A stretch of 15,193 nt of DNA from Abditibacteriaceae bacterium. Lineage in GTDB: Bacteria > Armatimonadota > Abditibacteriia > Abditibacteriales > Abditibacteriaceae. Shown here piece by piece: positions 2,939 to 14,755 of the stretch. The notes beneath the pieces were generated by a model. The model saw only the letters and a list, made by a program, of their open reading frames with translations. It was not told the DNA's origin and ran no database searches. Position numbers and translations under genes: made by a program. Each line of letters starts with the position of its first letter. Within the stretch, counting starts at the first letter, position 1. The stretch covers positions 1 to 15,193 of the forward strand of contig JANMKN010000091.1 of assembly GCA_031372065.1 (NCBI GenBank), written 5' to 3'.

Positions 2939-4603
2939 ATGCCATTCCCACAAAGAAGAATTACAAAACAACAGGAACAAGGTGAATCTGGACAACGAGA
3001 AACGGAAAAATGCTTTGCTGCGGTTGGATGGCAACCACGCCCTTTAACTCCTGATTTGGGTGAAGATTTTATTGTTGACATATACGACGATGGCATCTCT
3101 GCCGGCCTCGCATTTTACGTTCAAGTAAAGAGCATCGCAAATGCCAGTAGCATCACACGACGTAATGAGGAACTGAGCTATTCTCTTGAAATTAAAGATT
3201 TAGAACACTGGGAAGATTACAGGCCCACAGTCGTCTTACTAATTTGGGATATAGCCAATGCCTGCGGCTACTGGGAATTAATTGAAAATATTATCTCTAA
3301 ATTAAATGCAAACAAACCAACTTGGCGAACTCAAAAATCAATAGCAGTCCGAGTCCCATTTCGTAACACCACTGATAAAGAGAGTTTTAAGCGACTTCGC
3401 CGCTTAATTGCTTTAAAAGAATTACCAACATTCGGGGCTGGTAAGGAATTAACCACAACAGTTACATTTTCTTTTCCAGATACAGATCAAGGTAAATATG
3501 AAAATAAAGCGATACAGCAACTTGAGGAATATGGTGACGGTGCTGAGATTACCACCGATTTCATCACAAAAATAGAAGCGCCAGATTGGTATCAACGCAA
3601 GTTCGGCAAGATTGAAATCGCTTCTGGTGGAACGATTAAATTTGGCACTTGCTCCTCAGACAAGATAACTAAGTTTCGCCTTAAACTACTGTCTCCACAG
3701 CAACGCGTCGAACAAATTTTACAAATTGAAACCAAACCGATAAAAATTGGTAGCAAAAGAATCACGTTTTCCAACGCTCACAATCCCTTGCCATTTAATT
3801 GTCAACTTGTTTTTGAATTGGGCGGAAATGTCAAAATCAGTTTCTCGCTTAACCAAACAAAATTGAACGCTCATGAAGCATTCAAGGCTTTTGATTTTTT
3901 CAATAGAGTAAGGCCGAAAGGCACCTTATATATAGAACCGGTCATCAATACCAATGACGCAGATAATTGGGACCCATGGAAAGCAGTGCGTATTTCTATT
4001 CCCAATGCGACCTATTTTGAGATGGGGGCAGCCTTTCGTAAATTATTAGAAAGAATGAAATTCATCGAAGAAAAGACAAGCATCGAATTCGACCTCACTT
4101 CAGCCAACTTAGAAAATATGGATGGCGAAGAGTGGAAAGAGGTGCATCGACTGGCCCAAATTACAGAAATGGGGAGACTCAAATATAACTTTAAGCATCT
4201 GGAATGGGACCTTAGCCAACCAAAAACACCCGATGCAGGAAGACGCCTTATCGAACTCGCATGGAAACGTCATAGAGAAAACACACCCATTGTATTTCAT
4301 ACTGATACTGGTCAAGTTACAATTCACACTTGGAACTCAGATATTCCTGTTGGACCCCAAAAAACATATATTCAAGGCCTATTCGACGAAGAATCCCTTA
4401 AATATTTGGTTAAAACCATAGAATCTGGAGAATCACCACAGGAATTAAGCATTTCACTCGTCAATGGATTGTGTTTGGAGGAATACACAGACTGGATAAA
4501 AGATGACAGCCAATTGAAATCACTTAGGCAGGAAATGGAGCAACAGGACTCAGGATCTGAGTCCTTCGGATTCAACATCACATCCTTCAAACGCATTATT
4601 TGA
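2939..4603 (+). CDS. DUF4365-like (PD-(D/E)XK fold) N-terminal domain protein, putative nuclease
   Basis: 554 aa. The N-terminal GESGQ..E...PDLGEDFIVD...FYVQVKS...LEHW...VVLLIWD pattern matches DUF4365-type restriction-endonuclease-fold domains. RBS AGGAG lies upstream. The C-terminal ~390 aa are unrecognised. Confidence 0.75.
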   Translation: MPFPQRRITKQQEQGESGQRETEKCFAAVGWQPRPLTPDLGEDFIVDIYDDGISAGLAFYVQVKSIANASSITRRNEELSYSLEIKDLEHWEDYRPTVVLLIWDIANACGYWELIENIISKLNANKPTWRTQKSIAVRVPFRNTTDKESFKRLRRLIALKELPTFGAGKELTTTVTFSFPDTDQGKYENKAIQQLEEYGDGAEITTDFITKIEAPDWYQRKFGKIEIASGGTIKFGTCSSDKITKFRLKLLSPQQRVEQILQIETKPIKIGSKRITFSNAHNPLPFNCQLVFELGGNVKISFSLNQTKLNAHEAFKAFDFFNRVRPKGTLYIEPVINTNDADNWDPWKAVRISIPNATYFEMGAAFRKLLERMKFIEEKTSIEFDLTSANLENMDGEEWKEVHRLAQITEMGRLKYNFKHLEWDLSQPKTPDAGRRLIELAWKRHRENTPIVFHTDTGQVTIHTWNSDIPVGPQKTYIQGLFDEESLKYLVKTIESGESPQELSISLVNGLCLEEYTDWIKDDSQLKSLRQEMEQQDSGSESFGFNITSFKRII

Positions 4604-4696
4604 AGGCCCATAAAAAGTAAAATGCCAAATCATTTTAACCCGGTTTTTCTCCCGATTGAGGCTACTACCCCGTAAGGCGCCCCCTTTTTTACTCTC

Positions 4697-4725
4697 TTGC
4701 ATCAATTTTTTCTATTTTGTAGAAT
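4697..4725 (+). promoter_or_regulatory. sigma70-type promoter with overlapping palindromic operator (probable PadR site)
   Basis: TTGCAT (4697-4702), a 17-nt spacer and TAGAAT (4720-4725). The inverted repeat TTCTA-TTTTG-TAGAA (4710-4724) overlaps the -10 box. Confidence 0.7.
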
Positions 4726-4730
4726 TAATC

Positions 4731-4754
4731 ATGAATCTGATACGTCAGATTCAT
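4731..4754. repeat. Perfect 10-bp inverted repeat / hairpin
   Basis: ATGAATCTGA-TACG-TCAGATTCAT, beginning at about the predicted transcription start of the padR unit. Confidence 0.85.
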
Positions 4755-4775
4755 TTCGTCGGATTCCCTACAACC

Positions 4776-5102
4776 ATGAACAGCAAATCAAAAATCGGTG
4801 ACTTTGAGGAGATCGTCCTGATGGCGGTATTCAGATTAGGCAGTGATGCCTACGGCATGACAGTTCGGCAAACAGTGGCAGAGGCCAGCAAAAACTTTAC
4901 TTCGATTGGTGCAATTTACACTACTTTGGAGCGGCTTGAGGCAAAAGGCTTTATCTCGTCTTGGCAAGGTGAAGCAACAGCCGAGCGTGGTGGACGTGCC
5001 AAGCGCTACTTTAAAATTGAGGGCAGCGGGATTGATGCGTTGCGTGAAAAAGAGCAAGTGCGCCAGAATATCTTGGGTGGATTGTTAGGAGGTGTGGCAT
5101 GA
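4776..5102 (+). CDS. PadR-family transcriptional regulator
   Basis: IGDFEEIVLMAVFRL..DAYG...SIGAIYTTLERLEAKGFISS...ERGGRAKRYFKI is a classic short PadR winged helix. Start placed at ATG 4776 (108 aa); the in-frame ATG at 4731 is an alternative. The ORF-track start at 4656 lies upstream of the promoter. Confidence 0.93.
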   Translation: MNSKSKIGDFEEIVLMAVFRLGSDAYGMTVRQTVAEASKNFTSIGAIYTTLERLEAKGFISSWQGEATAERGGRAKRYFKIEGSGIDALREKEQVRQNILGGLLGGVA

Positions 5103-5650
5103 ACATTGAGGATCGCTGTCTCTTGGCAGATATTCTAAAGAAGAAGTTTGCTCACCTGCCATCACTATACATTGACTATATCGTTGACGATCTCCACAAA
5201 AGGTTGAGCGATGTTATCGATTATCCAATTGCCCTTACAAAGCAAAATTTAGAGGACATTTGTTGTATCGTGGAAATCGAAACAAAAGATTTCAACCTTG
5301 AAATTTTGCGCAGTATCAGCTTGGGAATACAAATCAGAAATGCCGTTGTTCATCCCGTTAAGTTTTTGTTTAAAAAAGCTGATATGCGTGCTGAGGCGAA
5401 GCCAAACGATTTTCTGCCTTCCGGAGCAGTGCTTATATTGCACTGCTTCTTACCTCAAAAAGATCGTATGGAAATCATCGGCGACTTGGAGGAGGAGTTC
5501 TTTCTAATCTTCAAGCGCGATGGTAGGCGCAAAGCGCGCTTTTTCATGTGGTTACAGGCGTTTCTCTCGCTTTGGCCCTATGTGAAGGGTGCGGCATGGG
5601 CCGCGACGATTGGGCGTGCCATCGGCTGGCTCCAACAATTGCGCGGATAA
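5099..5650 (+). CDS. PadR-associated protein with C-terminal permease-prefix-like domain
   Basis: ATGA overlap with padR. The C-terminal PSGAVLILHCFLPQKDRMEIIGDLEEEF...GRRKARFFMWLQAFLSLWP resembles the N-terminal prefix domain of PadR-linked ABC permeases, but no permease body follows. Confidence 0.65.
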   Translation: MNIEDRCLLADILKKKFAHLPSLYIDYIVDDLHKRLSDVIDYPIALTKQNLEDICCIVEIETKDFNLEILRSISLGIQIRNAVVHPVKFLFKKADMRAEAKPNDFLPSGAVLILHCFLPQKDRMEIIGDLEEEFFLIFKRDGRRKARFFMWLQAFLSLWPYVKGAAWAATIGRAIGWLQQLRG

Positions 5651-5671
5651 GTCCCGGTTGAAAGAAATCTA

Positions 5672-6865
5672 ATGGCAAAATCACCAACTTTCGTAAAAGA
5701 CAGGCAAGAATTATTTATCTTGCTTGATGCGGTCATGAACAAGACCTATTTTCAAGTTCGTGATTTTGCCCCTTTTGAACCAGATCATGCGCAGGTTAAG
5801 ACTTACCTTTTAGAGTTCGACTGGGAACGGCAGAAAAATGTTAAGGAAGAAATTGCGTTTTTAGCCACTTCTCTCACGATTCCACCATCGCGCACGGGTA
5901 AGTCATGTGTTCCCCGGATTACACAAACATCGGAAATAGGCTTTTATTGTGTTCAATGGGAATGGCGAAATGACACGCCCATAATTGTATTTCTGGATAG
6001 TGCTACAGACCAAAAACGGCGTTTTTGGATTGCCTATTCTCTTTCCGATGCCAAAACGCTTGACATCATATTTGATCGTCTTGCTATGAACCAGCCAGCT
6101 TTTGACCGAGTGTGGTTTTGGCCGAAGTTGCTTTCGGATACTCAAAGCAGAGGCGATTTTCGTGGAATCGGCATTGATTACGATTACCGACGATTTGAAC
6201 TCAATTCGCAGCGACCAGATTCGACAGATTACCTCAAAATGCAAATTCGCGGGGGGTCGCATACACAGCTAATTTACCAACAATTACAAGAATCCTCTGC
6301 ATTCAGTCAGCAAATCGTTCTTGCAAAAGTTGGTTTGAAGTATTGGGTTGACCGCGACGATCTCTCTAACTTTGCCGTTGAAGAAATCAAATACAATGGC
6401 AAATTCACCACAAAAGGGACATCCTTTGCCGACCATCAATCACTGGTCATTGATATGCGTGCCACCTACGCCAATAAAATTCGCTCGATTGAGGCGAACC
6501 ATACTATCATGACCAGCAATGCTTCAAATTATGGTGTTGACGGTGATCCTGTTATTTTTTCCTTCGAGAAAAGACCCATTGAGGATTTGGACCATTTTTG
6601 CAGCGTTGTATTTTCTGGCCGTATGCCGTTTCGGTTGTGGGGCCTAAGTCGACGAGCTGCAGGAACGGATGATGGGAGGCAAATTACAGCCGTTGACCTT
6701 CATACCGGTTCCAAATTGTTTTTTGAAGTCTTTCCAGACATGGTTTCCATGTATCTGTATCCCGGCGCCTGCGGCAATACAGTTGCCCGTTTCTTTACAA
6801 ACATTCAACAAACATTCAGCAGGCAAGTCACTTGCGAGGACACAAATGAACAAAGACTCTTTTAA
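5672..6865 (+). CDS. Hypothetical protein (397 aa), first gene of an overlapping pair
   Basis: Long ORF with globular composition, starting 21 nt after the previous stop. No family recognised with confidence. Confidence 0.85.
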   Translation: MAKSPTFVKDRQELFILLDAVMNKTYFQVRDFAPFEPDHAQVKTYLLEFDWERQKNVKEEIAFLATSLTIPPSRTGKSCVPRITQTSEIGFYCVQWEWRNDTPIIVFLDSATDQKRRFWIAYSLSDAKTLDIIFDRLAMNQPAFDRVWFWPKLLSDTQSRGDFRGIGIDYDYRRFELNSQRPDSTDYLKMQIRGGSHTQLIYQQLQESSAFSQQIVLAKVGLKYWVDRDDLSNFAVEEIKYNGKFTTKGTSFADHQSLVIDMRATYANKIRSIEANHTIMTSNASNYGVDGDPVIFSFEKRPIEDLDHFCSVVFSGRMPFRLWGLSRRAAGTDDGRQITAVDLHTGSKLFFEVFPDMVSMYLYPGACGNTVARFFTNIQQTFSRQVTCEDTNEQRLF

Positions 6866-7823
6866 TTTGATGTTGACTAATCTGGCTATTGGTTTAGTCA
6901 AAGGCCATCCCTATTTGCGCCCAACCTCAAAAAAAGTAAAGGCTTTGGGTTACCGTTTATTCTGTGTCGAACGCAGTTTGTTTTGCGCTGCAGCAAACAG
7001 TTCAAAAATGCCCGAATTAGTTTTTTATTCTCCCAAACAAGACCATGCGGTAATCTGCGAATGGACAAAAGTATCGTTAGAAACGGATGATAGCGATCCA
7101 AGGAAGGTCCAGCAGATTCAATCTTTCTTAAGTTACAGCAAAGAAGATTTGGTAGACAGGGCCGGTATGCCTATTCCCGGTGGCGCCCAAAATAGTGTTT
7201 GGTTGATTGTAACACCAGAAAACTTAGCAAGTTTTGAGGGCAGCATAACAGAGGCTTTGGAGCGCGCTATGCTATGCTCATTTCAAATCAGCGGAGATGG
7301 TGGTTGCGTTTCCTATCATCAAGGAACTTTTCAAGATGAGAAGTTAGCAGACATATTCAAGGATGGAATCAGCGCAAGTAGAATTCCGATGGGTTTTATA
7401 CCTATTTCTTTGGATCATTTTTCGCAGCATAAATTTGCAGAGCTTCTGATTCAGCAAATTGTCACTTATATTGTTAAGCATACCACTGAATTTTCAAATG
7501 AGAACATAGGGCAAGCGATTTTTGGTGAACAATGGCCCCTTTTAGGCAAAGAAAAGCAAAAAGGTGTAAGGCAACACGCCGCAAAAACATTAAAACAGCT
7601 TGCCCAAAAGCCTTACTTGCAGGAGTGGCTGACTCGAACCGAATCGCAAGATTTGACTTGGCGAGTTGCAATCCCCAAAGGCAAAGAATCGCCTGCTTCA
7701 TTGATCAAACTTCAAAGTCGTGCTCAGAAATATATGCATGAAAAATTTTCAGGCCCTAATTCTCCAACTTATCAATATGACCTTTTCGATCAACCAGAAC
7801 CAGTAGACGTGGAATCAGAATAA
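6846..7823 (+). CDS. Hypothetical protein (325 aa), possible degenerate PD-(D/E)XK fold
   Basis: Start reassigned from 6669 to ATG 6846 (RBS GAGGA just upstream, 20-nt overlap with the previous gene). MPELVFYSPKQDHAVICEWTK...QQIQSF is reminiscent of PD..ExK..Q nuclease-fold motifs. Confidence 0.7.
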   Translation: MNKDSFNLMLTNLAIGLVKGHPYLRPTSKKVKALGYRLFCVERSLFCAAANSSKMPELVFYSPKQDHAVICEWTKVSLETDDSDPRKVQQIQSFLSYSKEDLVDRAGMPIPGGAQNSVWLIVTPENLASFEGSITEALERAMLCSFQISGDGGCVSYHQGTFQDEKLADIFKDGISASRIPMGFIPISLDHFSQHKFAELLIQQIVTYIVKHTTEFSNENIGQAIFGEQWPLLGKEKQKGVRQHAAKTLKQLAQKPYLQEWLTRTESQDLTWRVAIPKGKESPASLIKLQSRAQKYMHEKFSGPNSPTYQYDLFDQPEPVDVESE

Positions 7824-7895: not shown

Positions 7896-7976
7896 AGAAC
7901 CCGTTTTCTGATTTAATTATTTTTGAATTGTTTTTGTTCTGTTCGTCCGTTTCGTTCGTCTTCGCCCTACTTCTCC

Positions 7977-8327
7977 ATGTCCGACTCCTCGAACATCCTT
8001 AACCCTATCCACAATTTTGCCGTGCGGATGTTCCCTGACGATTCAGGACAATGGACTGTTGCAGAGATGGTGGCCGCCACGCAAAAGCAATATGAAGCAC
8101 CTGATGACTTGCAAATCACCGAACCCCAATTTCGCAATGCGATTCGCAGTCTGCGGGAACGCACAACCAAATTCCCCTTGGCTGACAGCATTGACGAAAT
8201 CCCTTGCAGCGATGCCACACGCTATCCACCAGCTTCGGCTCGCCTCATTTTGCGCACCGTGATTCGCGGGCGCTTGCCAAAAAACTTAGCGCAAAACCCA
8301 CCTTCACTCAATGTAGAACAAGCCTAA
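7977..8327 (+). CDS. Small hypothetical protein, possible MerR/excisionase-like helix-turn-helix
   Basis: 116 aa from ATG 7977. WTVAEMVAA...ITEPQFRNAIRSLRER...TRYPPASARLILR loosely fits a MerR-like winged HTH. The function call is tentative. Confidence 0.55.
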   Translation: MSDSSNILNPIHNFAVRMFPDDSGQWTVAEMVAATQKQYEAPDDLQITEPQFRNAIRSLRERTTKFPLADSIDEIPCSDATRYPPASARLILRTVIRGRLPKNLAQNPPSLNVEQA

Positions 8328-8455: not shown

Positions 8456-8797
8456 ATGAGCACAATTTCTCAATCAGCCGTGCCTGTGCGTGGCCCTGAT
8501 GGTTTGCTGTTACCTCCTAAACAAGATTTAGTGGCTTTTGGCTTGCTCGGCGCCGACGGACGTTTGCGCGAAAAACCACAGCCAATTACTTGCCAAGATT
8601 GTGCGGAGCGCATCGGTAGTGACGGCGGCTTACTATGCGTGCGCATCGGCCAATTTCTTTGCTATTATCACTCCAAAGGCAAATTTAAAGACGGTAGCCC
8701 GCGCGGACGTTGGTTGCTTGTTCAATTTCAGTGCGCCAATCAAGGCAAAGCCGTTGTGATTTGTGATTTCGGCCACCGCTGCGAAATTCCGCTGTAA
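8456..8797 (+). CDS. Cys-rich zinc-finger protein (Com-like), candidate RNA-binding late regulator
   Basis: 113 aa from ATG 8456 (purine-rich AGGAAAGG upstream). ITCQDC...LLC and terminal VICDFGHRC provide CxxC plus CxxxH/C metal ligands. It ends 21 nt before a late promoter. Confidence 0.6.
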   Translation: MSTISQSAVPVRGPDGLLLPPKQDLVAFGLLGADGRLREKPQPITCQDCAERIGSDGGLLCVRIGQFLCYYHSKGKFKDGSPRGRWLLVQFQCANQGKAVVICDFGHRCEIPL

Positions 8798-8818: not shown

Positions 8819-8827
8819 TGCTATAAT
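8819..8827 (+). promoter_or_regulatory. Extended -10 promoter for the terminase unit
   Basis: TG-C-TATAAT is a perfect TGnTATAAT, directly upstream of the leader box and hairpin. Confidence 0.75.
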
Positions 8828-8849
8828 CTTTTTTGACATTCAAATTATC

Positions 8850-8918
8850 AGGCCCAGAGCCGCGTTTTTCGTATTCTTGTGTTCCCACAGAATTAGGAAA
8901 GCGCGGTTTTTTGTTTTT
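8850..8918 (+). terminator. Leader attenuator 1: AGGCCCAGAGCCGC box overlapping an intrinsic terminator
   Basis: Box at 8850-8863. Stem 8856-8870 pairs with 8896-8910 (four G-U pairs) and encloses an inner ATTCT-GTG/CACAGAAT stem. The U-tract TTTTTTGTTTTT spans 8907-8918. It lies between the promoter and the first gene. Confidence 0.8.
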
Positions 8919-8952
8919 GCGGGCACTTGAATTGGCAATAGCACAATCGGCA

Positions 8953-9315
8953 ATGGCACAAAACGAAAAAGAAATTCAACAAATTACCTTCCTTGCTTCG
9001 TTTCCTCCCATTGCCTCGGCGATTTTGCGTTCTGGTGCTGGCGATGGAATGCAAATCAAACTCAGCATCCCTGAATCGGAAATGGGCAATGCGATTCGCT
9101 GCCAATTGTGGCCGGGCAAGCATTTAGAAATTACGATGAGGGTTCTCAATGACGAAGAAATCCGCAACCTCCACCAAAAAAACAACCGTCAACAAGACAA
9201 CGGCGAAGGCCACCAAGACAGTGAAGAAACCAATGGCGGCGAAAGTGGAGAACGTCGAACTCTTAAGCGGGCAGCGCCACGACGGCGAGTCAAACGCGGC
9301 GATAATCGCGTGTAA
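8953..9315 (+). CDS. Phage hypothetical protein preceding the small terminase
   Basis: 120 aa from ATG 8953 with a folded-looking N-terminal half (ITFLASFPPIASAI...GDGMQIKLSIPESEMGNA). The track's TTG start at 8833 would run through the leader terminator and is unlikely. Confidence 0.7.
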   Translation: MAQNEKEIQQITFLASFPPIASAILRSGAGDGMQIKLSIPESEMGNAIRCQLWPGKHLEITMRVLNDEEIRNLHQKNNRQQDNGEGHQDSEETNGGESGERRTLKRAAPRRRVKRGDNRV

Positions 9316-9994
9316 CGATTGGCTGCGTCTGGGGCCGGGACGCTCCTTGCGCCGTTTGCTGGACATTTACTTTCAGGCCAAAAACCCACCAAAACCCACC
9401 AGCACCCACCAAAATTCGCCTTATCAACTGCCTTATGAGCCGCCGACTTGCTCACTGGACACAATCAAAGGCTGGTCTTTGCAGTTCGATTGGAAAAACC
9501 GCGCCGTGTTTTTCGATCAGGAAGGCGAGGAAGCAAAAAACGCGCGACGCAAGGAAGTTTTCGGCTCCGGTTTGGGGTTGGACTTTGAACGTGTTGAAGC
9601 CCTGAACAATATAGCCAACTTGCTCTATGGGCAGATTTTTGAAACCAGCGAATCGGGCGACTTCGACCATGAAATCAGCATTGAAGGCTCCAAAGCACGC
9701 GAGTATCACAATCTCTGGGTGCATGATGTGAAAGCCATTGGCAGTGGGGACTTTGCCGAGCGTGTTGACCTTGAGCGCTTCAACTCTTCTATTTTGTCGG
9801 AATTTCGCTCCCTGCTGACGGAGATCGCACAAGAAACCGGCGGGCGGCGCAAAGGCGCCCAGCTCGAAGCGTTTATCAAAAAGGTTCAAGAGAGGCTCGA
9901 CACCTCCAAGCTAAAAGCTGAACAGGTGGAGCGCATACGTGCCGGCGAACACTGGATCATCGTTCTTCTCGAACCCTATATGCTTGGCGAGTAA
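9149..9994 (+). CDS. Putative terminase small subunit
   Basis: GQRHDGESNAA...WLRLGPGRSLRRL...TIKGWSLQFDWKNRAVFFD is an HTH pattern typical of small terminases. RBS GAGGG at 9138-9142. It lies directly upstream of, and overlaps, the large terminase. Confidence 0.78.
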   Translation: MTKKSATSTKKTTVNKTTAKATKTVKKPMAAKVENVELLSGQRHDGESNAAIIACNDWLRLGPGRSLRRLLDIYFQAKNPPKPTSTHQNSPYQLPYEPPTCSLDTIKGWSLQFDWKNRAVFFDQEGEEAKNARRKEVFGSGLGLDFERVEALNNIANLLYGQIFETSESGDFDHEISIEGSKAREYHNLWVHDVKAIGSGDFAERVDLERFNSSILSEFRSLLTEIAQETGGRRKGAQLEAFIKKVQERLDTSKLKAEQVERIRAGEHWIIVLLEPYMLGE

Positions 9995-11855
9995 TCCGCT
10001 CGATGCCGATTCCCAATTCCTGCAAAAGCTGGAAGCGGAACACGTCCTGCGCGCTTCCTACGCCGCTGATGTGGAGGCTCTTCAGGAAAAGCAGGAACAA
10101 ACAGCACTCGCAACCGAATCTCTCGCTGAATTCGTCAAGCAAGCGTGGCATATCATGGAGCCAGACACGCCACTTTTGTGGAACTGGCACCTCGACTGCA
10201 TTTGCGCGCATCTGGAAGCTGTCACCTTCGGCCTGATTCGCCGCCTCATTATTAATGTGCCGCCGGGGCACATGAAATCGCTCATAACTTCGGTCTTCTG
10301 GCCTGCGTGGATGTGGCTGCGTCAACCGGGCACGCGCATCTTGTGCGCGTCTTATGGTTTGGATTTAGCGATACGCGATGCCACCAAAACCAAAGACCTT
10401 GTTTTAGATCCGTGGTATCAAGACACCTTCGCGCCGAACTGGCACATCCGCAACGATTCCAAAGCCAAACAAAATTACCAGAACACGGCGCGCGGTTCTC
10501 GTAAAAGTATGTCGGTCGGCAGTGGCACAACGGGTAATCGCGGCCACGGCGTTATTATTGATGACCCGCTGTCCATCATGGATGGCTTCTCTGAAGCCAA
10601 GCGCAGTGAAGCCAGCAAATGGTTATTTCAAGCCGCTCAAAACCGTCTATCCGACCCGCGCACCGGCTGGATAGTGATGATCATGCAGCGCGTGCATCAC
10701 GAAGACCCGACTGGCGCGGCGCTGGAAAAGAAGGTTGATAAATGGGAACTGGTCTGCCTGCCTTCGGAATTTGAGGAGGAGCGCGCCTTTCGAACCCTCT
10801 TAGCCGATTTGCCGCCAGATCACCCCCATTACGAGCGTTTTGCCAAGTGGGGCAAAGACCTCCGCAAATCGCCGGGCGAATTGCTCTTTCCGGCGTTTTT
10901 TACCGATCAAGTTATTGAGGGGCAAAAAGAAGCCCTGCAAGCGTTGGCCTATGCGGGTCAACATCAACAGCGTCCTACGCCGGCGGCGGGCAACATCTTC
11001 CAAGCCGAAATGTTCCTCGAAATTCTTTCGATGGATAAAGGCGAACCGCGTTTGGGGTTGTGGTCAACCTCGCGCCTTTTTGATGGTTCGCTCAAAGTGC
11101 GCGAAGCCTATTTCGCGTGGGATACGGCCATGAAGGACAAAACCACCAACGACTTTACTGCTGGTTGTTTATCCCTATTGTGTGACGATGGCTACGTTTA
11201 TCTGTATCCGGTTGAGTTTCGCCGTATGACGGTGCCGGAAGTCGAAAAACGTGTCGCGCTTTCTTGGGTAGAATGGCGCAATCGCTTGCAGCGCCGGTTA
11301 AAAGGCGCGCGCATCGAAGAGGGCGCGGGCACGGCGCTGATTCAATATATACGCCGTTTGATGCTGCAACGGCGTGAGATGGTAAATTCGCCAATTCCCG
11401 GCTGGTCACAAGATGACTGGGATATGATTCGTGCCACGGATCCCATCAACGTTTTTCCGTTTACAACATCGCAAAAGAAGATTGAAAAGGCTTACGAAGT
11501 GCTGCCTTTTTGCGCGGCGCGCAACGTGCGTTTGTTGGATACGCCACTCTCCTATGGATGGCTTTCCAATCTGCTGGCGTTTCCCCTTGGTGGCAAAGAT
11601 GACCCTGTGGATTCCACCGTCAATGCTATTGGCCCATTTGCCGGTGTGGTCAAGGGCCTTAGCGTTATGCCACCCGAAGAATTGGAAGCTGCGTTGGAAC
11701 CAGACCCTGAAAACGTAGATCTGTCGGTTTATGAAAAGATGATTCCTTTGGATGCAGGCATCGTGAATCAAGCAGAAGATGTAGCATCCCTGATAGATGC
11801 TGCCATGAAGCAAGCTGGATTGGATGATTTCATGGCGGCGCTGGAAGGTGGGTAA
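9939..11855 (+). CDS. Phage terminase large subunit
   Basis: WNWHLDCICAHLEAV, Walker A INVPPGHMKS, Walker B VIIDDP, coupling motif IMQRVH, QHQQRP, and nuclease acidic motifs AWDTA..DFTA and DDPVDS. The exact start is uncertain (GTG 9939 or TTG 9984). Confidence 0.95.
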   Translation: MPANTGSSFFSNPICLASNPLDADSQFLQKLEAEHVLRASYAADVEALQEKQEQTALATESLAEFVKQAWHIMEPDTPLLWNWHLDCICAHLEAVTFGLIRRLIINVPPGHMKSLITSVFWPAWMWLRQPGTRILCASYGLDLAIRDATKTKDLVLDPWYQDTFAPNWHIRNDSKAKQNYQNTARGSRKSMSVGSGTTGNRGHGVIIDDPLSIMDGFSEAKRSEASKWLFQAAQNRLSDPRTGWIVMIMQRVHHEDPTGAALEKKVDKWELVCLPSEFEEERAFRTLLADLPPDHPHYERFAKWGKDLRKSPGELLFPAFFTDQVIEGQKEALQALAYAGQHQQRPTPAAGNIFQAEMFLEILSMDKGEPRLGLWSTSRLFDGSLKVREAYFAWDTAMKDKTTNDFTAGCLSLLCDDGYVYLYPVEFRRMTVPEVEKRVALSWVEWRNRLQRRLKGARIEEGAGTALIQYIRRLMLQRREMVNSPIPGWSQDDWDMIRATDPINVFPFTTSQKKIEKAYEVLPFCAARNVRLLDTPLSYGWLSNLLAFPLGGKDDPVDSTVNAIGPFAGVVKGLSVMPPEELEAALEPDPENVDLSVYEKMIPLDAGIVNQAEDVASLIDAAMKQAGLDDFMAALEGG

Positions 11856-11907
11856 AAGGCAAAATGTTTAATGTATAAAGCATTGAACATTAAAAAGGAG
11901 ATAAATC

Positions 11908-12945
11908 ATGCGCGATGTCAATCTTGAAAGCTGGGCAGTAACGCCCCACCATACTTACTTTATGCACGTCCAGAACGCGCCGGACGCCTCGGCTGTGGGC
12001 CTTTCGCTGGTGCAGATCGGCGATGGAAGCGAGCCATGTATTGGAATTGACTCGCACGAGGGCGACAATTACGCCGGTCATGTGTTAATCGCAGCGGGTC
12101 GGCCCGTGCCGAATATTGAGGTGCAATATTTTAACGACAAGCAATTCATCGCCGAAACACTCACCGATAAATTGGGGCGCCATTCGGTGCGCGTGGCGCC
12201 GGGTTGTTATCAATATCGCTTCTTGTTCCCCGGCGAAAATCGCGAATTCGAAATTTTAGTCAAGCCCGGCCATCGTGTTAAATGGGAGGATATCGGCGCT
12301 TCCGGCGAAATCTTGGATGCCAAAGAGCGGCAAATCAAATTCATTACAGAAGAGGTCGTTTGTCACTGGGATAACTCGGACGGCACGCCATTTCAATGGA
12401 TAGATGTTGTCGAAGTGATTTGCAAAATCGCGGATCGCATTGCCAAAGCGAATGGCACCTTGCGGCAGATTTCCTTTGCACAGTTTTGCCGTCCCGATGT
12501 CATTGAACACTTGAAAATGCGTGGTTGCTGGGCCTTAGAAACGAACTGGCGAGAGTTGCAATTCGCCGGGGCCTACCGCAATTTGCGCTCTATCCTTGCC
12601 GCGAAATTGATTCGCTTGAAAAATCATGAGGAAGCCAATTATCAAATGCTACGCAATACGATATTAGATGAGGCTGGTAAGCGGTTGAATGCGCCGGAGG
12701 GCAGTTTGAATTATTTAGCTCTGGCGCGCATCGCTGTTGTCTACTATGCCTCTACGCTTTCTGGCGCCATCGGCAATGGTTTGGCGATTTATGACCCGAT
12801 GAGCGATGGGCAACTGGGAACAGCGGGCCGTATGCCTAAAAACAGCCGCGAATCCGCTTTTCAAACGTCGTCGGCGGTGGTGCCCAGCGGTTTCGGCGCT
12901 GCTGGTGCGAAAATCTTAGAGCAAGAATGGAATCCAAAGGCGTAG
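11908..12945 (+). CDS. Hypothetical protein: probable inactive terminase-nuclease-like (RNase H fold) domain with inserted carboxypeptidase-regulatory-like beta domain
   Basis: Strong RBS AAGGAG, 345 aa. YFMHVQ..AVGLSL, ISFAQF, AYRNLRSIL...IRL and GKRLNAPEGSLNYLALA follow the order of TerL C-terminal motifs but lack the acidic residues. The internal GHVLIAAGRPVPNIEV...TLTDKLG...VAPGCY resembles a prealbumin-fold repeat. Confidence 0.55.
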   Translation: MRDVNLESWAVTPHHTYFMHVQNAPDASAVGLSLVQIGDGSEPCIGIDSHEGDNYAGHVLIAAGRPVPNIEVQYFNDKQFIAETLTDKLGRHSVRVAPGCYQYRFLFPGENREFEILVKPGHRVKWEDIGASGEILDAKERQIKFITEEVVCHWDNSDGTPFQWIDVVEVICKIADRIAKANGTLRQISFAQFCRPDVIEHLKMRGCWALETNWRELQFAGAYRNLRSILAAKLIRLKNHEEANYQMLRNTILDEAGKRLNAPEGSLNYLALARIAVVYYASTLSGAIGNGLAIYDPMSDGQLGTAGRMPKNSRESAFQTSSAVVPSGFGAAGAKILEQEWNPKA

Positions 12946-12997
12946 CAGAATCGTCCAAGAAACAATTGAAAGCGCGTTTGTGAGTTAGGATAAAATC

Positions 12998-13684
12998 ATG
13001 GGAAAGTCCAACGAAGAGCTAAAAACTGAGTTAGTTGATTTTTTGCGGCGGCTGGAGGAAAAAGCACTACTAATAAATGGTAATCTGCAAACTCTTAAAA
13101 TAATTGACGAATGTCTGCGTGATGACCGCGTTGCTATGTTAAGGATGTTTGAAGGTTATTTTTCCTTAACAATTGATGCTCTGGTCTCCAACATTATTGT
13201 GCGCACGTTCAATATGTATGATGAAAGTCCCAGGGCACAACGGGGAATTCCGCAATTCTTGACCCGCGCTCGTAGCGACGCGCATACTTTAGTGCCACCA
13301 CAAATCGGAGGTCATATGTTGGCACCTGTCTTGGTTTCATCCAAGCAGGATTTGATTCACATGATTGACCATCAACTCCAAAACATCGAAACGGCAAAAC
13401 CAATCCTTGAAAAAATTGCTATTCATCGCTCAAAATATAGGGTTCACAGCGATAAGAAGTTTTTCGATGATCCAAACCTGCTTTTGGGCGAATATCACCT
13501 AAACATTCAGGACTTGGATGAGATTGACGCCTTAACGCGAGCAATTTTGGCAAAGCAACACATTATCATTATTGGGTCTGATTGGACACCGATTTTAGCA
13601 GAGGGCTATGATGTGGTGCGCCTTGTGGAGTTTTTGAAACGCGGGCATGAAGCTTTAAGAAACCAAAGTCGGCCTAAACTTTAA
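12998..13684 (+). CDS. HEPN (AbiU2-like) RNase-domain protein
   Basis: 228 aa, helical composition. ALVSNIIVRTFNMYD and RSKYRVHSDK (R-x5-H followed by xD, 13427-13447) resemble AbiU2-type HEPN domains. It is AT-richer than the flanking phage genes. Confidence 0.65.
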   Translation: MGKSNEELKTELVDFLRRLEEKALLINGNLQTLKIIDECLRDDRVAMLRMFEGYFSLTIDALVSNIIVRTFNMYDESPRAQRGIPQFLTRARSDAHTLVPPQIGGHMLAPVLVSSKQDLIHMIDHQLQNIETAKPILEKIAIHRSKYRVHSDKKFFDDPNLLLGEYHLNIQDLDEIDALTRAILAKQHIIIIGSDWTPILAEGYDVVRLVEFLKRGHEALRNQSRPKL

Positions 13685-13705
13685 ATGAGATTTTGTGAAC
13701 CGTGG

Positions 13706-13735
13706 TTCGCAAAAACCCGAAAAATCGCATAAAAT
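13706..13735 (+). promoter_or_regulatory. Putative promoter of the second late unit
   Basis: TAAAAT at 13730-13735 with a weak -35 (TTCGCA, 13706-13711). It is positioned 18 nt before the second leader box, paralleling the first unit. Confidence 0.55.
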
Positions 13736-13753
13736 AGTTTTTAATTCGACAAA

Positions 13754-13804
13754 AGGCCCAGAGCCGCAACGCCATGATATTTGGCGTTGCGGCTCTTTGT
13801 TTTT
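13754..13804 (+). terminator. Leader attenuator 2: AGGCCCAGAGCCGC box overlapping an intrinsic terminator
   Basis: Box at 13754-13767. Perfect 15-bp stem AGAGCCGCAACGCCA (13760-13774) / TGGCGTTGCGGCTCT (13782-13796) with a 7-nt loop, then TTGTTTTT. Confidence 0.88.
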
Positions 13805-13843
13805 GGCTCGCTGTTTTGGCTTTTTAGTTTTCAGGAGAATCAA

Positions 13844-14755
13844 ATGACGCAAAATCGCTCTTCGCTCACATTGTCCCGCTCTGAACTCGGTTCGTGCCTT
13901 GTCCATTTGGCGCTACGCTACAACGGCGTGCGTGAACAGCCACTCGGTTCCAACTCTGGCCCGCTGGTGCGCCACTTTCAGGCGGCCACCACGCTGGCGC
14001 GCACACAGCCAACAGGCTGGCCGTGGTGCGCCGCTTTCGACGCCTTCATAATGCAGGAATTGTGGCGCGAATTGGGCATTCAGTTGCCAAATCCGTGGCC
14101 CGCCACTGCGTCCTGTGACGAATTGCTGTATTGGGCGCGAAAGCAAGGCATCCTGTTTAACAGTCCAGAGGCCTTTGATTTCTTCCTCGCTATGAAAAGC
14201 GCTGGCGATGCCACACATACCGGCCTTGTCATGGATGTGCAAAGCGATAGCGACATTGAAACCATCGAGGGCAACACAAACAACGACGGCAGTCGTGAAG
14301 GCATTGGCGTCTTTACCTTTGTTGGTGGCAATGCCAAACATGAGGCAAATCGCACTTATGTGCGCTGGCTCAATTTACTGCCGGAAGAGATTCCTATCTT
14401 GCCTCCGTCGCCCACACCATTGCTGGTGGCAGAGCCGCCGTCTCTGACTTCGCCTTCCCGTCCTGAAACACCGCGTTTGATTCTGGCTTTGCCTCCCTAC
14501 TCGCCCGCCGATTACCATGTGATTCAAACGGCACAGTTTGCCGGAGGTGCATGGACGGTAGAAGGCAGCGAAATCCAAAGCATCTTAGGTGAATCGCTAA
14601 ACCTGCCAGCGCATCATCCCGCTTTGACCAAGCGTGATCGCATCCGGGCGTATTTGTTGGCATTGGGACAGAAAATTGACGAAAAGCGCACCATGCTGGG
14701 CAACCATTTGGGCGATGATGATCCCCGCCAATATGTCTTTGTGGCGTCGAATTAG
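13844..14755 (+). CDS. CHAP-domain peptidoglycan hydrolase (putative endolysin)
   Basis: GVRE..GSNSGP.V, PWCAAF (catalytic Cys), HTGLV (His) and TIEGNTN..GSREG, then a Pro-rich linker and an unknown C-terminal domain. Start reassigned to ATG 13844 (RBS CAGGAG). Confidence 0.9.
   Translation: MTQNRSSLTLSRSELGSCLVHLALRYNGVREQPLGSNSGPLVRHFQAATTLARTQPTGWPWCAAFDAFIMQELWRELGIQLPNPWPATASCDELLYWARKQGILFNSPEAFDFFLAMKSAGDATHTGLVMDVQSDSDIETIEGNTNNDGSREGIGVFTFVGGNAKHEANRTYVRWLNLLPEEIPILPPSPTPLLVAEPPSLTSPSRPETPRLILALPPYSPADYHVIQTAQFAGGAWTVEGSEIQSILGESLNLPAHHPALTKRDRIRAYLLALGQKIDEKRTMLGNHLGDDDPRQYVFVASN

Follow-up and report, generated by a model that had tools for sequence, protein, structure and literature searches.

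We analysed a 15,193-nt stretch of DNA (the window), which is the whole of contig C282 in a 6.1-Mb Abditibacteriaceae genome (G000), along with five relatives of this genome (G001, G006, G021, G022 and G023). The window is part of an element that, by its gene content, is a P1-like phage-plasmid, and late genes of this element follow predicted intrinsic terminators that carry the same short sequence tag, here termed the box, at the foot of their stems. We put at about 0.7 the probability that these tagged terminators are gates for non-processive, protein-dependent RNA antitermination, with a phage RNA-binding protein acting at every late gate. An earlier note, made from the window alone, had described two intergenic regions of one shared design; all its coordinates for them check, and the two sites belong to a set of 13 copies on this element, with a further 7–11 in each of four relatives.

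The first window site consists of a -10 element, 22 nt, the 14-mer AGGCCCAGAGCCGC, a hairpin (8856-8910), TTTGTTTTTG (8910-8919) and an ATG at 8953; the second has TAAAAT (13730-13735), 18 nt, the box, a hairpin (13760-13796), TTTGTTTTTG (13796-13805) and an ATG at 13844 (Table 1). At both sites none of 200 shuffled sequences folded as well as the hairpin (z scores of -5.9 and -6.3). A comparison with Rfam gave no match at either window site and one match of E 1.6 elsewhere in the window; over five phage loci (94 kb) it gave two tRNA matches only, none of them at box sites. The spacing between the TATAAT of site 1 and the box is kept in three genera (22 nt in the window, 22 nt in G023 and 20 nt in G006), and the end of a G001 contig (C577) falls exactly on TGCTATAAT. 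The TAAAAT of site 2 is kept 18 nt before the box in G001; it is missing in G023, whose box has a tRNA-like element ahead of it. This element (G023:C91:14939-15044, Rfam 31.6 bits) and a tRNA-Leu(CAA) in G006 (C4:71988-72064) both lie just upstream of the second late gate.

By chance, one repeated 14-mer is expected about 0.4 times in 15 kb, and the repeat alone is not significant. Within the 6.1-Mb genome, the exact 14-mer occurs seven times; every occurrence is on a phage contig and has a hairpin and a T tract after it, which shows that the repeat is not fortuitous. A relaxed version of the box matches 235 times in the genome; nine of these matches pass a filter for a hairpin with a T tract, and 9/9 are on phage contigs. 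The G000 element is split over six contigs (C282, C246, C284, C408, C38 and C370), which together hold the 13 copies recovered by a relaxed search. G001 and G023 have 11 copies each, and G022 and G006 have seven each. Among 31 genomes of the class, the terminase is present in six and the capsid protein in five, and all five capsid-bearing genomes have the cassettes. The sixth terminase genome, G021, has a terminase with a split small subunit, and neither a capsid gene nor boxes were found in it; this absence of boxes says little, because only a terminase remnant is left. Searches further afield gave no convincing copies: an IMG/VR scan with our first pattern returned 94 loci, about the chance level, none with a convincing stem and T tract, and none with a strict pattern; nine distant terminase loci (23-40% identity) have no common box; a metagenome scan returned four loci, with no homology to the phage in those tested (L170 and L172); the matches outside the family in a genome collection, as well as locus L126, are without a long stem; and 12 single matches from the phylum's other families do not rise above the control level. 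The reading of the box as a host repeat or uptake sequence was ruled out, as the box is confined to the element.

The earlier note had regarded the box as a fixed 14-mer, which does not hold: in G000, G001, G022 and G023 the conserved unit is (A/G)(G/A)GCC-N2-4-GAGCC, 12-14 nt long with a variable middle. Among the 42 curated copies from these four genomes (two doubtful rows of a total of 50 were dropped), the middle measures 2 nt in 35, 3 nt in five and 4 nt in two. Such variability suits a looped RNA and would be hard to fit with a site on duplex DNA. The pattern used in collecting these copies fixed the letters of the tag; hence, we also surveyed terminators separately with the loose rule [GA]GC-N4-7-GCC at the stem foot. 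All 31 positives outside G006 carry the full GCC-N2-4-GAGCC core. The 1158 host terminators gave 40 loose positives, mostly A-rich two-way terminators, and the core is found nearby in one. The register is constant, with GAGCC at the stem foot. Across 41 stems the constraint lies on the box side: G8 is opposite T in 28 and C in 13, and G10 is opposite C in 32 and T in nine. The pairs above the box interchange GC, CG, AT and TA yet remain paired. In four of the elements (not G006) the upper stems vary in sequence and length, whereas genera with 65-90% terminase identity share the box. The earlier proposal that selection acts on a box overlapping the 5' arm of a predicted terminator is supported. 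The AGGCCC half of the box does lie outside the terminator stem, as had been noted, but it need not be unpaired, because its GGC can pair with the GCC of the box itself. Two further readings were rejected: a boxA-like role of the 3' arm, since that arm varies, and pairing of a G in the tail with the box, since the distance ranges from 5 to 8 nt and some copies are without the G. Ahead of the tail-tube gene, a second, degenerate hairpin that starts GAGAGCCGC (G000:C408:8140-8197) adjoins the tagged terminator on its upstream side, a tandem or decayed copy.

In 349 kb, AGGCC-N2-4-GAGCC occurs 37 times on the late strand versus twice on the opposite one. The 34 tagged intergenic phage terminators are followed by a co-oriented gene in 33 cases (including that at window position 8860, reassigned by hand, as the script had preferred an antisense open reading frame) and by a contig end in one. 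In contrast, 17 of the 38 untagged terminators face a co-oriented gene and 21 are convergent; examples of untagged terminators include the ends of late units, early-strand terminators and the terminator after the G023 major head gene. The gated junctions, which are largely orthologous between elements, precede the terminase unit, lysin, portal, a large helicase-like virion gene, the DarB unit, head protease, tail genes, tape measure and holin, and every copy is on the late strand. The earlier note's own first check, a scan of the rest of the element with copies expected only in late-operon leaders, came out in its favour: all 13 copies of this element are at late-gene junctions. A -10-like hexamer lies 10-35 nt upstream in 16/50 rows; within 10-30 nt the count is 15/50, versus 34/1157 for host terminators, a lenient control in that these are mostly gene ends. 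Wherever a -10 occurs, the box is 13-26 nt downstream of it. Many other copies stand 1-50 nt past a stop codon inside late operons. Accordingly, a minority of the gates would be leaders, and the majority break into operons. Of the promoter that the earlier note made part of the design, the -10 at site 1 is kept at 20-22 nt in two other genera, but such a promoter does not extend to most copies.

The box also has a fold of its own. Before the 3' arm exists, its lowest-energy structure is a GGC/GCC mini-hairpin of 3 bp with a 5-nt loop (-3.4 kcal/mol). As judged from sequence and folding, this mini-hairpin and the terminator foot are mutually exclusive, as they use the same GCC. The energetic cost of imposing the mini-hairpin is 5.9 and 12.5 kcal/mol for the two window sites and 3.4-15.8 kcal/mol over the curated sites, which suggests that termination is the default and that a ligand would be needed. 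The loop is 5 nt long in 40/50 rows and starts with C outside G006. The earlier note missed that the box contains the RNA word recognised by the Com protein of phage Mu, whose target, in the excerpts of PMC6483171, is 5'-CC(N)2-3GAG-3' in a hairpin loop closed by C-G. This word fits 40 of the 42 curated copies; the other two have N4, and the seven G006 copies do not fit. Mu's own site, GCC-TGC-GAGC, folds alike, and the same 40 boxes read GCC-N2-3-GAGC. G006 is the most distant of the elements, with a capsid 42% identical; here GGC...GCC and the register are kept, and the loop is ATTAC, ATTC or ACTCC at 7/7 sites (AUUAC-type). The G006 boxes are all on the late strand of the phage contig, mostly at orthologous junctions, with none elsewhere in the genome.

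These features suggest the following model. Each late gene block would be held behind a predicted intrinsic terminator, the lowest pairs of which come from the tag. A phage-encoded RNA-binding protein likely binds the tag as the GGC/GCC mini-hairpin in the nascent RNA; the foot of the terminator then could not close, and read-through would follow, with the upper stem surviving the binding but separated from the U tract. Roughly one gate in three would end short RNAs from its own sigma70 promoter, and the rest would interrupt late operons. In the plasmid state these stops would keep the virion and lysis genes off, and a single protein made on induction would open each gate separately. Non-processive action of this kind would account for the repetition of the gates.

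If this mechanism is right, the best candidate for the antiterminator is the protein encoded at 8456-8797, at somewhat less than even odds, because, among the genes of the control locus, only this one was found in every one of the five elements with boxes, and no box precedes it. Its homologs are always found just upstream of the terminase unit, with few relatives elsewhere. It belongs to no Pfam, PHROG or NCBIfam family, and no viral relatives were found; its model has a predicted local distance difference test score (pLDDT) of 62, with a best Z of 3.4 and no viral fold match at E<=0.001. Alignment to Com with hhalign gives a probability of 6-7% over 10-11 columns, with only an IRCxxC knuckle in common. 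The homologs in G021 and G022 are without the cysteine pairs and keep the core G-L-SKG-GRW residues, and that of G006 is the most divergent. Position and distribution speak for the earlier nomination of this protein as the box binder, but the missing family, the want of a usable fold match and the loss of the cysteine pairs in two relatives do not. The second candidate regulator, the probable winged-helix protein at 7974-8327, gives weak structural matches to the ParA N-terminal and pSK1 Par helix-turn-helix domains (Z 4.1-4.7) and no Foldseek match; its gene was not found in G022 or G006. Its score against an NCBIfam sigma-70 family (E 0.086) is far below the cut-off, and a homolog is annotated from Abditibacteriaceae. 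The zinc ribbon of a VRR-NUC nuclease, present in G006 and behind a box, was rejected as the binder: it reached a Com score of 48%, but with generic ribbon matches only and not PF10122. Small conserved open reading frames across the six elements included no tiny Com-, XtrA- or DUF2292-like candidate, and a protein-family atlas held no family for either of the two element proteins queried. More speculatively, and rather improbably, the 8456-8797 protein would be the founder of a new antiterminator family whose members bind RNA and recognise a Com-type hairpin word without homology to Com; it would turn on the whole virion programme through 11-13 separate gates, with the G006 protein and its AUUAC loop as a naturally orthogonal pair.

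Several observations weigh against antitermination by a phage protein at the box, or against the strength of the case for it. The G022 homolog of the candidate is without cysteine pairs though the G022 boxes are of the Com type, and in G022 and G021 the candidate gene abuts the terminase operon with no terminator between them. The Com family PF10122 had no match at E<=0.1 on the phage contigs of the five genomes, in which four of the elements are in pieces and a gene may be missing; Mu Com itself scores 2.7e-9 in this search. The CAT domain PF03123 was found in 0/5 genomes (85-94% complete), with the control matched in 4/14; the ANTAR domain PF03861 likewise gave 0/5, while its control search also matched 0/14. 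The energy of the mini-hairpin is no better than that of shuffled sequences, no compensatory change in the mini-stem is seen among the copies, and 5/42 have A opposite C in place of the outer pair. The invariance of the tag in 42/42 copies is partly built into the collecting pattern, and the five box-bearing elements are kin, so the significance of the counts is overstated. Finally, the G006 stems are near-identical and built on a host-wide palindrome; as near-copies, they could partly have carried the shared G006 box along with them.

The strongest rival, itself improbable, takes the box as a late promoter element in the DNA, specific to the phage, at which a phage activator or sigma-like factor starts RNA inside the 5' arm; the new RNA, being without the arm, would escape a terminator that insulates against upstream transcription. 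The lytic promoters of phiC31, which lie near terminators, offer an analogy. About two thirds of the copies have no sigma70 -10 nearby, the control locus encodes a probable helix-turn-helix protein (7974-8327), and the G006 boxes share an upstream TGATYT at 5/7 sites, all of which would suit a promoter. However, the middle of the box varies by 2 nt, and the alignment of 44 rows has no upstream column above 0.52 conservation; moreover, the conserved sigma70 -10 boxes would be redundant, no sigma factor is found among the 94 proteins of G023:C91, and the helix-turn-helix protein was not found in G022 or G006. A sigma54 promoter was set aside by eye, as the GG-GC spacing is wrong against the consensus.

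More doubtful is the view that the cassettes act constitutively, as leaky terminators or as elements of RNA stability, and so determine the ratios among late proteins, with the box as a by-product of copying by gene conversion or as a tuner of termination that needs no regulator. The near-identity of the G006 stems is a sign of copying, and the two window sites, 52 and 69 nt past a stop codon, could simply end the upstream gene. This would not explain why the other four elements vary the upper stems and keep the box across genera, or why convergent-end and early-strand terminators are without it; further, the gene upstream of the copy at C284:18706 is divergent, so that this copy cannot end a co-oriented gene.

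Ranking lower again, a Q/AlpA-like or RfaH-like factor could modify RNA polymerase, the box being a loading or pause signal in the transcription bubble and not a competitor of the terminator. A single-stranded DNA hairpin, as in the RfaH ops case, would also tolerate a variable loop. One third of the copies lie near a promoter, which recalls AlpA and its bypass of a terminator immediately downstream (excerpts of PMC9371919). Nevertheless, the element that AlpA and Q read is between the -35 and -10, and the box is found 13-26 nt past the -10; a processive factor would not require a site at each terminator, and no Q or NusG family match was found among the scanned proteins. Least likely of all is an RNA-level switch whose key is a host RNA-binding protein, an antisense RNA or a nuclease cutting at the box, as might be suggested by the lack of a known RNA-binding family on the elements and by weak Com-like scores on host contigs (best phmmer E 0.015 among 353 pre-selected segments), since the core is present at 1/1158 host terminators, only two copies lie on the opposite strand in 349 kb, and the loop has changed in one phage lineage.

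Returning to antitermination by a phage protein, we compared the tagged gates with described systems. With Mu Com/mom they share a 3-4 bp hairpin that has CC(N)2-3GAG in its loop, is closed by C-G and overlaps a larger inhibitory hairpin, as well as the setting of late-phase phage control; Com, in the excerpts of PMC6483171, acts once, on translation, via a structure that holds the start codon. Here, in contrast, a U tract follows the larger hairpin, which at the window sites stops 42 and 47 nt short of the ATG; there are 7-13 occurrences of the word per element, and the family search described above found no PF10122 protein. With the ANTAR proteins AmiR, NasR and EutV the likeness is a 3-bp mini-hairpin that overlaps the 5' arm of a terminator and the presence of several gates in one locus (excerpts of PMC3369931 and PMC12591593). 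The ANTAR targets given in the former are dual hairpins with six-base loops bearing A1 and G4, whereas there is one hairpin here, with a loop of 5-7 nt that starts with C (AUUAC-type in G006), and the aligned rows have no conserved hairpin upstream of it. The ribonucleic antiterminator (RAT) sites of BglG, SacY and LicT are RNA elements partly overlapping a terminator, are protein-bound there and act non-processively (same excerpts); they are 29-30 nt stem-loops, unlike the conserved 12-14 nt box, the targets of which are phage structural genes in genomes where no CAT domain was detected. Lambda Q, 21Q and Pseudomonas AlpA also control late or lysis genes behind a promoter-proximal terminator, but these factors are processive and load once, on DNA between the -35 and -10 (excerpts of PMC9371919). 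In our elements the site lies inside each terminator. Lambda N/nut, which comprises boxA-boxB and the N protein, and HK022 put are likewise processive, with a site well upstream. The phage-specific loop variants seen here recall the specificity of boxB; general family scans of the element proteins gave no match to an N family, N-type proteins being short and fast-diverging. The earlier likening of the sites to RAT or ANTAR, and their separation from N and Q, find support. Taken together, the tagged gates would work like RAT and ANTAR and use the Com RNA word, yet differ from Com, RAT and ANTAR as well as from Q/AlpA. A phage late regulon of a dozen separate RNA-gated terminators was not found in the open-access literature, subscription papers being outside the search. 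Described phage late switches are promoter activators, phage sigma factors or processive antiterminators.

The assignment of the element itself was made through its relatives. The six G000 phage contigs map onto a single contig, G023:C91 (107,091 bp), which encodes RepA, a recombinase, ParA, ParB, terminase, portal, major head protein, tape measure, a DarB-like protein and endolysin; an equivalent gene set is found on G006:C4 (100,350 bp) and on the six G000 contigs. The element is classed as a P1-like phage-plasmid because it combines genes for plasmid replication and partition with those for a virion. The gene order of G023:C91 is a circular permutation of that of the window, and no host core genes were recognised on it in our scans; a terminal repeat was not found on it at the five lengths tried, and the phage-plasmid call rests on gene content. 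RepA, ParA/ParB, the DarB-like protein and virion genes on an element of 100-107 kb are shared with P1- and N15-like phage-plasmids, and the scattered palindromes described below resemble N15 centromeres. Late control is exerted by a promoter activator in P1 and by Q in N15; homology to the late regulators of either was not detected in family scans of the element proteins.

Table 1. Features of the window, with positions, strand and the evidence for each assignment.
Feature	Position	Strand	Evidence or remark
RepA-like initiator and tyrosine recombinase (plasmid replicon)	470..2925	+	Pfam RPA, Phage_integrase; pair adjoins ParA/ParB on G023:C91
Probable winged-helix DNA-binding protein, 117 residues; second candidate regulator	7974..8327	+	Model pLDDT 78; in 3/5 box-bearing genomes
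Protein of 113 residues with CxxC and CxxGHxC motifs; positional candidate antiterminator	8456..8797	+	In the same 6/401 phylum genomes as this terminase
Extended -10 (TGn-TATAAT; TG-C-TATAAT) of predicted late leader 1	8819..8827	+	Sequence; predicted promoter activity
Box 1, AGGCC-CA-GAGCC	8850..8861	+	12-nt core of the 14-mer AGGCCCAGAGCCGC (8850-8863); Com-type CC-N2-GAG word; GGC/GCC mini-hairpin possible
Predicted intrinsic terminator 1	8856..8918	+	Stem 8856-8910, tail TTGTTTTT; -29.6 kcal/mol, z -5.9
First gated gene, 120 residues	8953..9315	+	No family match; before small terminase gene in all six related elements, 41-55% identity
Terminase small subunit, behind leader 1	9149-9994	+	PHROG 6299, E 3e-8
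Terminase large subunit, behind leader 1	9939-11855	+	PHROG 38, E 2.5e-70
Palindrome GTGAACCGTGGTTCGC, probable parS or operator	13695..13710	.	One of 7 on the element; overlaps -35 of leader 2; ParA/ParB encoded
Predicted sigma70 promoter of leader 2, TTCGCA-18-TAAAAT	13706..13735	+	9/12 consensus; such matches at chance level window-wide
Box 2, AGGCC-CA-GAGCC	13754..13765	+	Same 14-mer AGGCCCAGAGCCGC (13754-13767)
Predicted intrinsic terminator 2	13760..13804	+	15-bp stem 13760-13796, tail TTGTTTTT; -31.8 kcal/mol, z -6.3
CHAP-type endolysin, first gene behind leader 2	13844..14755	+	PHROG 9589, E 2.4e-13

The window thus comprises a RepA-like initiator, a tyrosine recombinase, cargo genes, the terminase subunits, an AbiU2-like gene and a CHAP endolysin; the portal operon follows the endolysin on contig C246, behind another box. 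The first gated protein (8953-9315) has a conserved beta-rich N-terminal region of 85 residues, a domain that is doubled in G006 and that, by eye, we take to recall AbrB-type folds. Cargo genes occupy 2939-7823 and 12998-13684 and code for a DUF4365 protein, a PadR-like regulator with a partner, a phrog_22469 protein with a downstream partner and an AbiU2-like HEPN protein; at these positions the relatives carry different, defence-like cargo. Upstream of repA (182-422), TCCCGTATAGCTACGGAA recurs in direct and inverted orientation; these repeats are likely the replicon's iterons. In G021 (C11:155900-160500) the terminase small subunit lies in two frames beside a repeated short sequence, which suggests an insertion scar. 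G000 also holds pieces of a second, more distant terminase (41% identity; C191:2287-3039 and C312:911-1774) that would belong to another prophage.

Two kinds of palindromes were also observed. The first, GTGAAC-YRYR-GTTCAC, is dispersed and near-confined to the elements, with some copies within genes; besides the copy in the window, G000 has it at C284:417 and 18768, C370:3813 and 14348, and C408:3077 and 7410, and there are 7-9 copies each on G023:C91 and G006:C4. Like the scattered centromeres of N15, it is probably the parS of the encoded ParB; it also resembles the Gram-positive SOS box, and a LexA-like repressor is encoded at C370:2050-2655. The second, a perfect 16-bp palindrome of G006 (CTGCAAGTACTTGCAG), occurs 879 times in 4.3 Mb of that genome and not at all in four relatives, and often forms terminator stems. 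In this it resembles a DNA-uptake or repetitive extragenic palindromic (REP)-type repeat; an assembly artefact may also account for it.

The switch predicted here is small, at about 60 nt plus one protein, and its two loop specificities could give orthogonal transcription switches. If the proposed mechanism is true, the Com RNA word has moved from the control of translation to that of termination. The tagged gates also provide a first look at gene control in the phages of Abditibacteriaceae.

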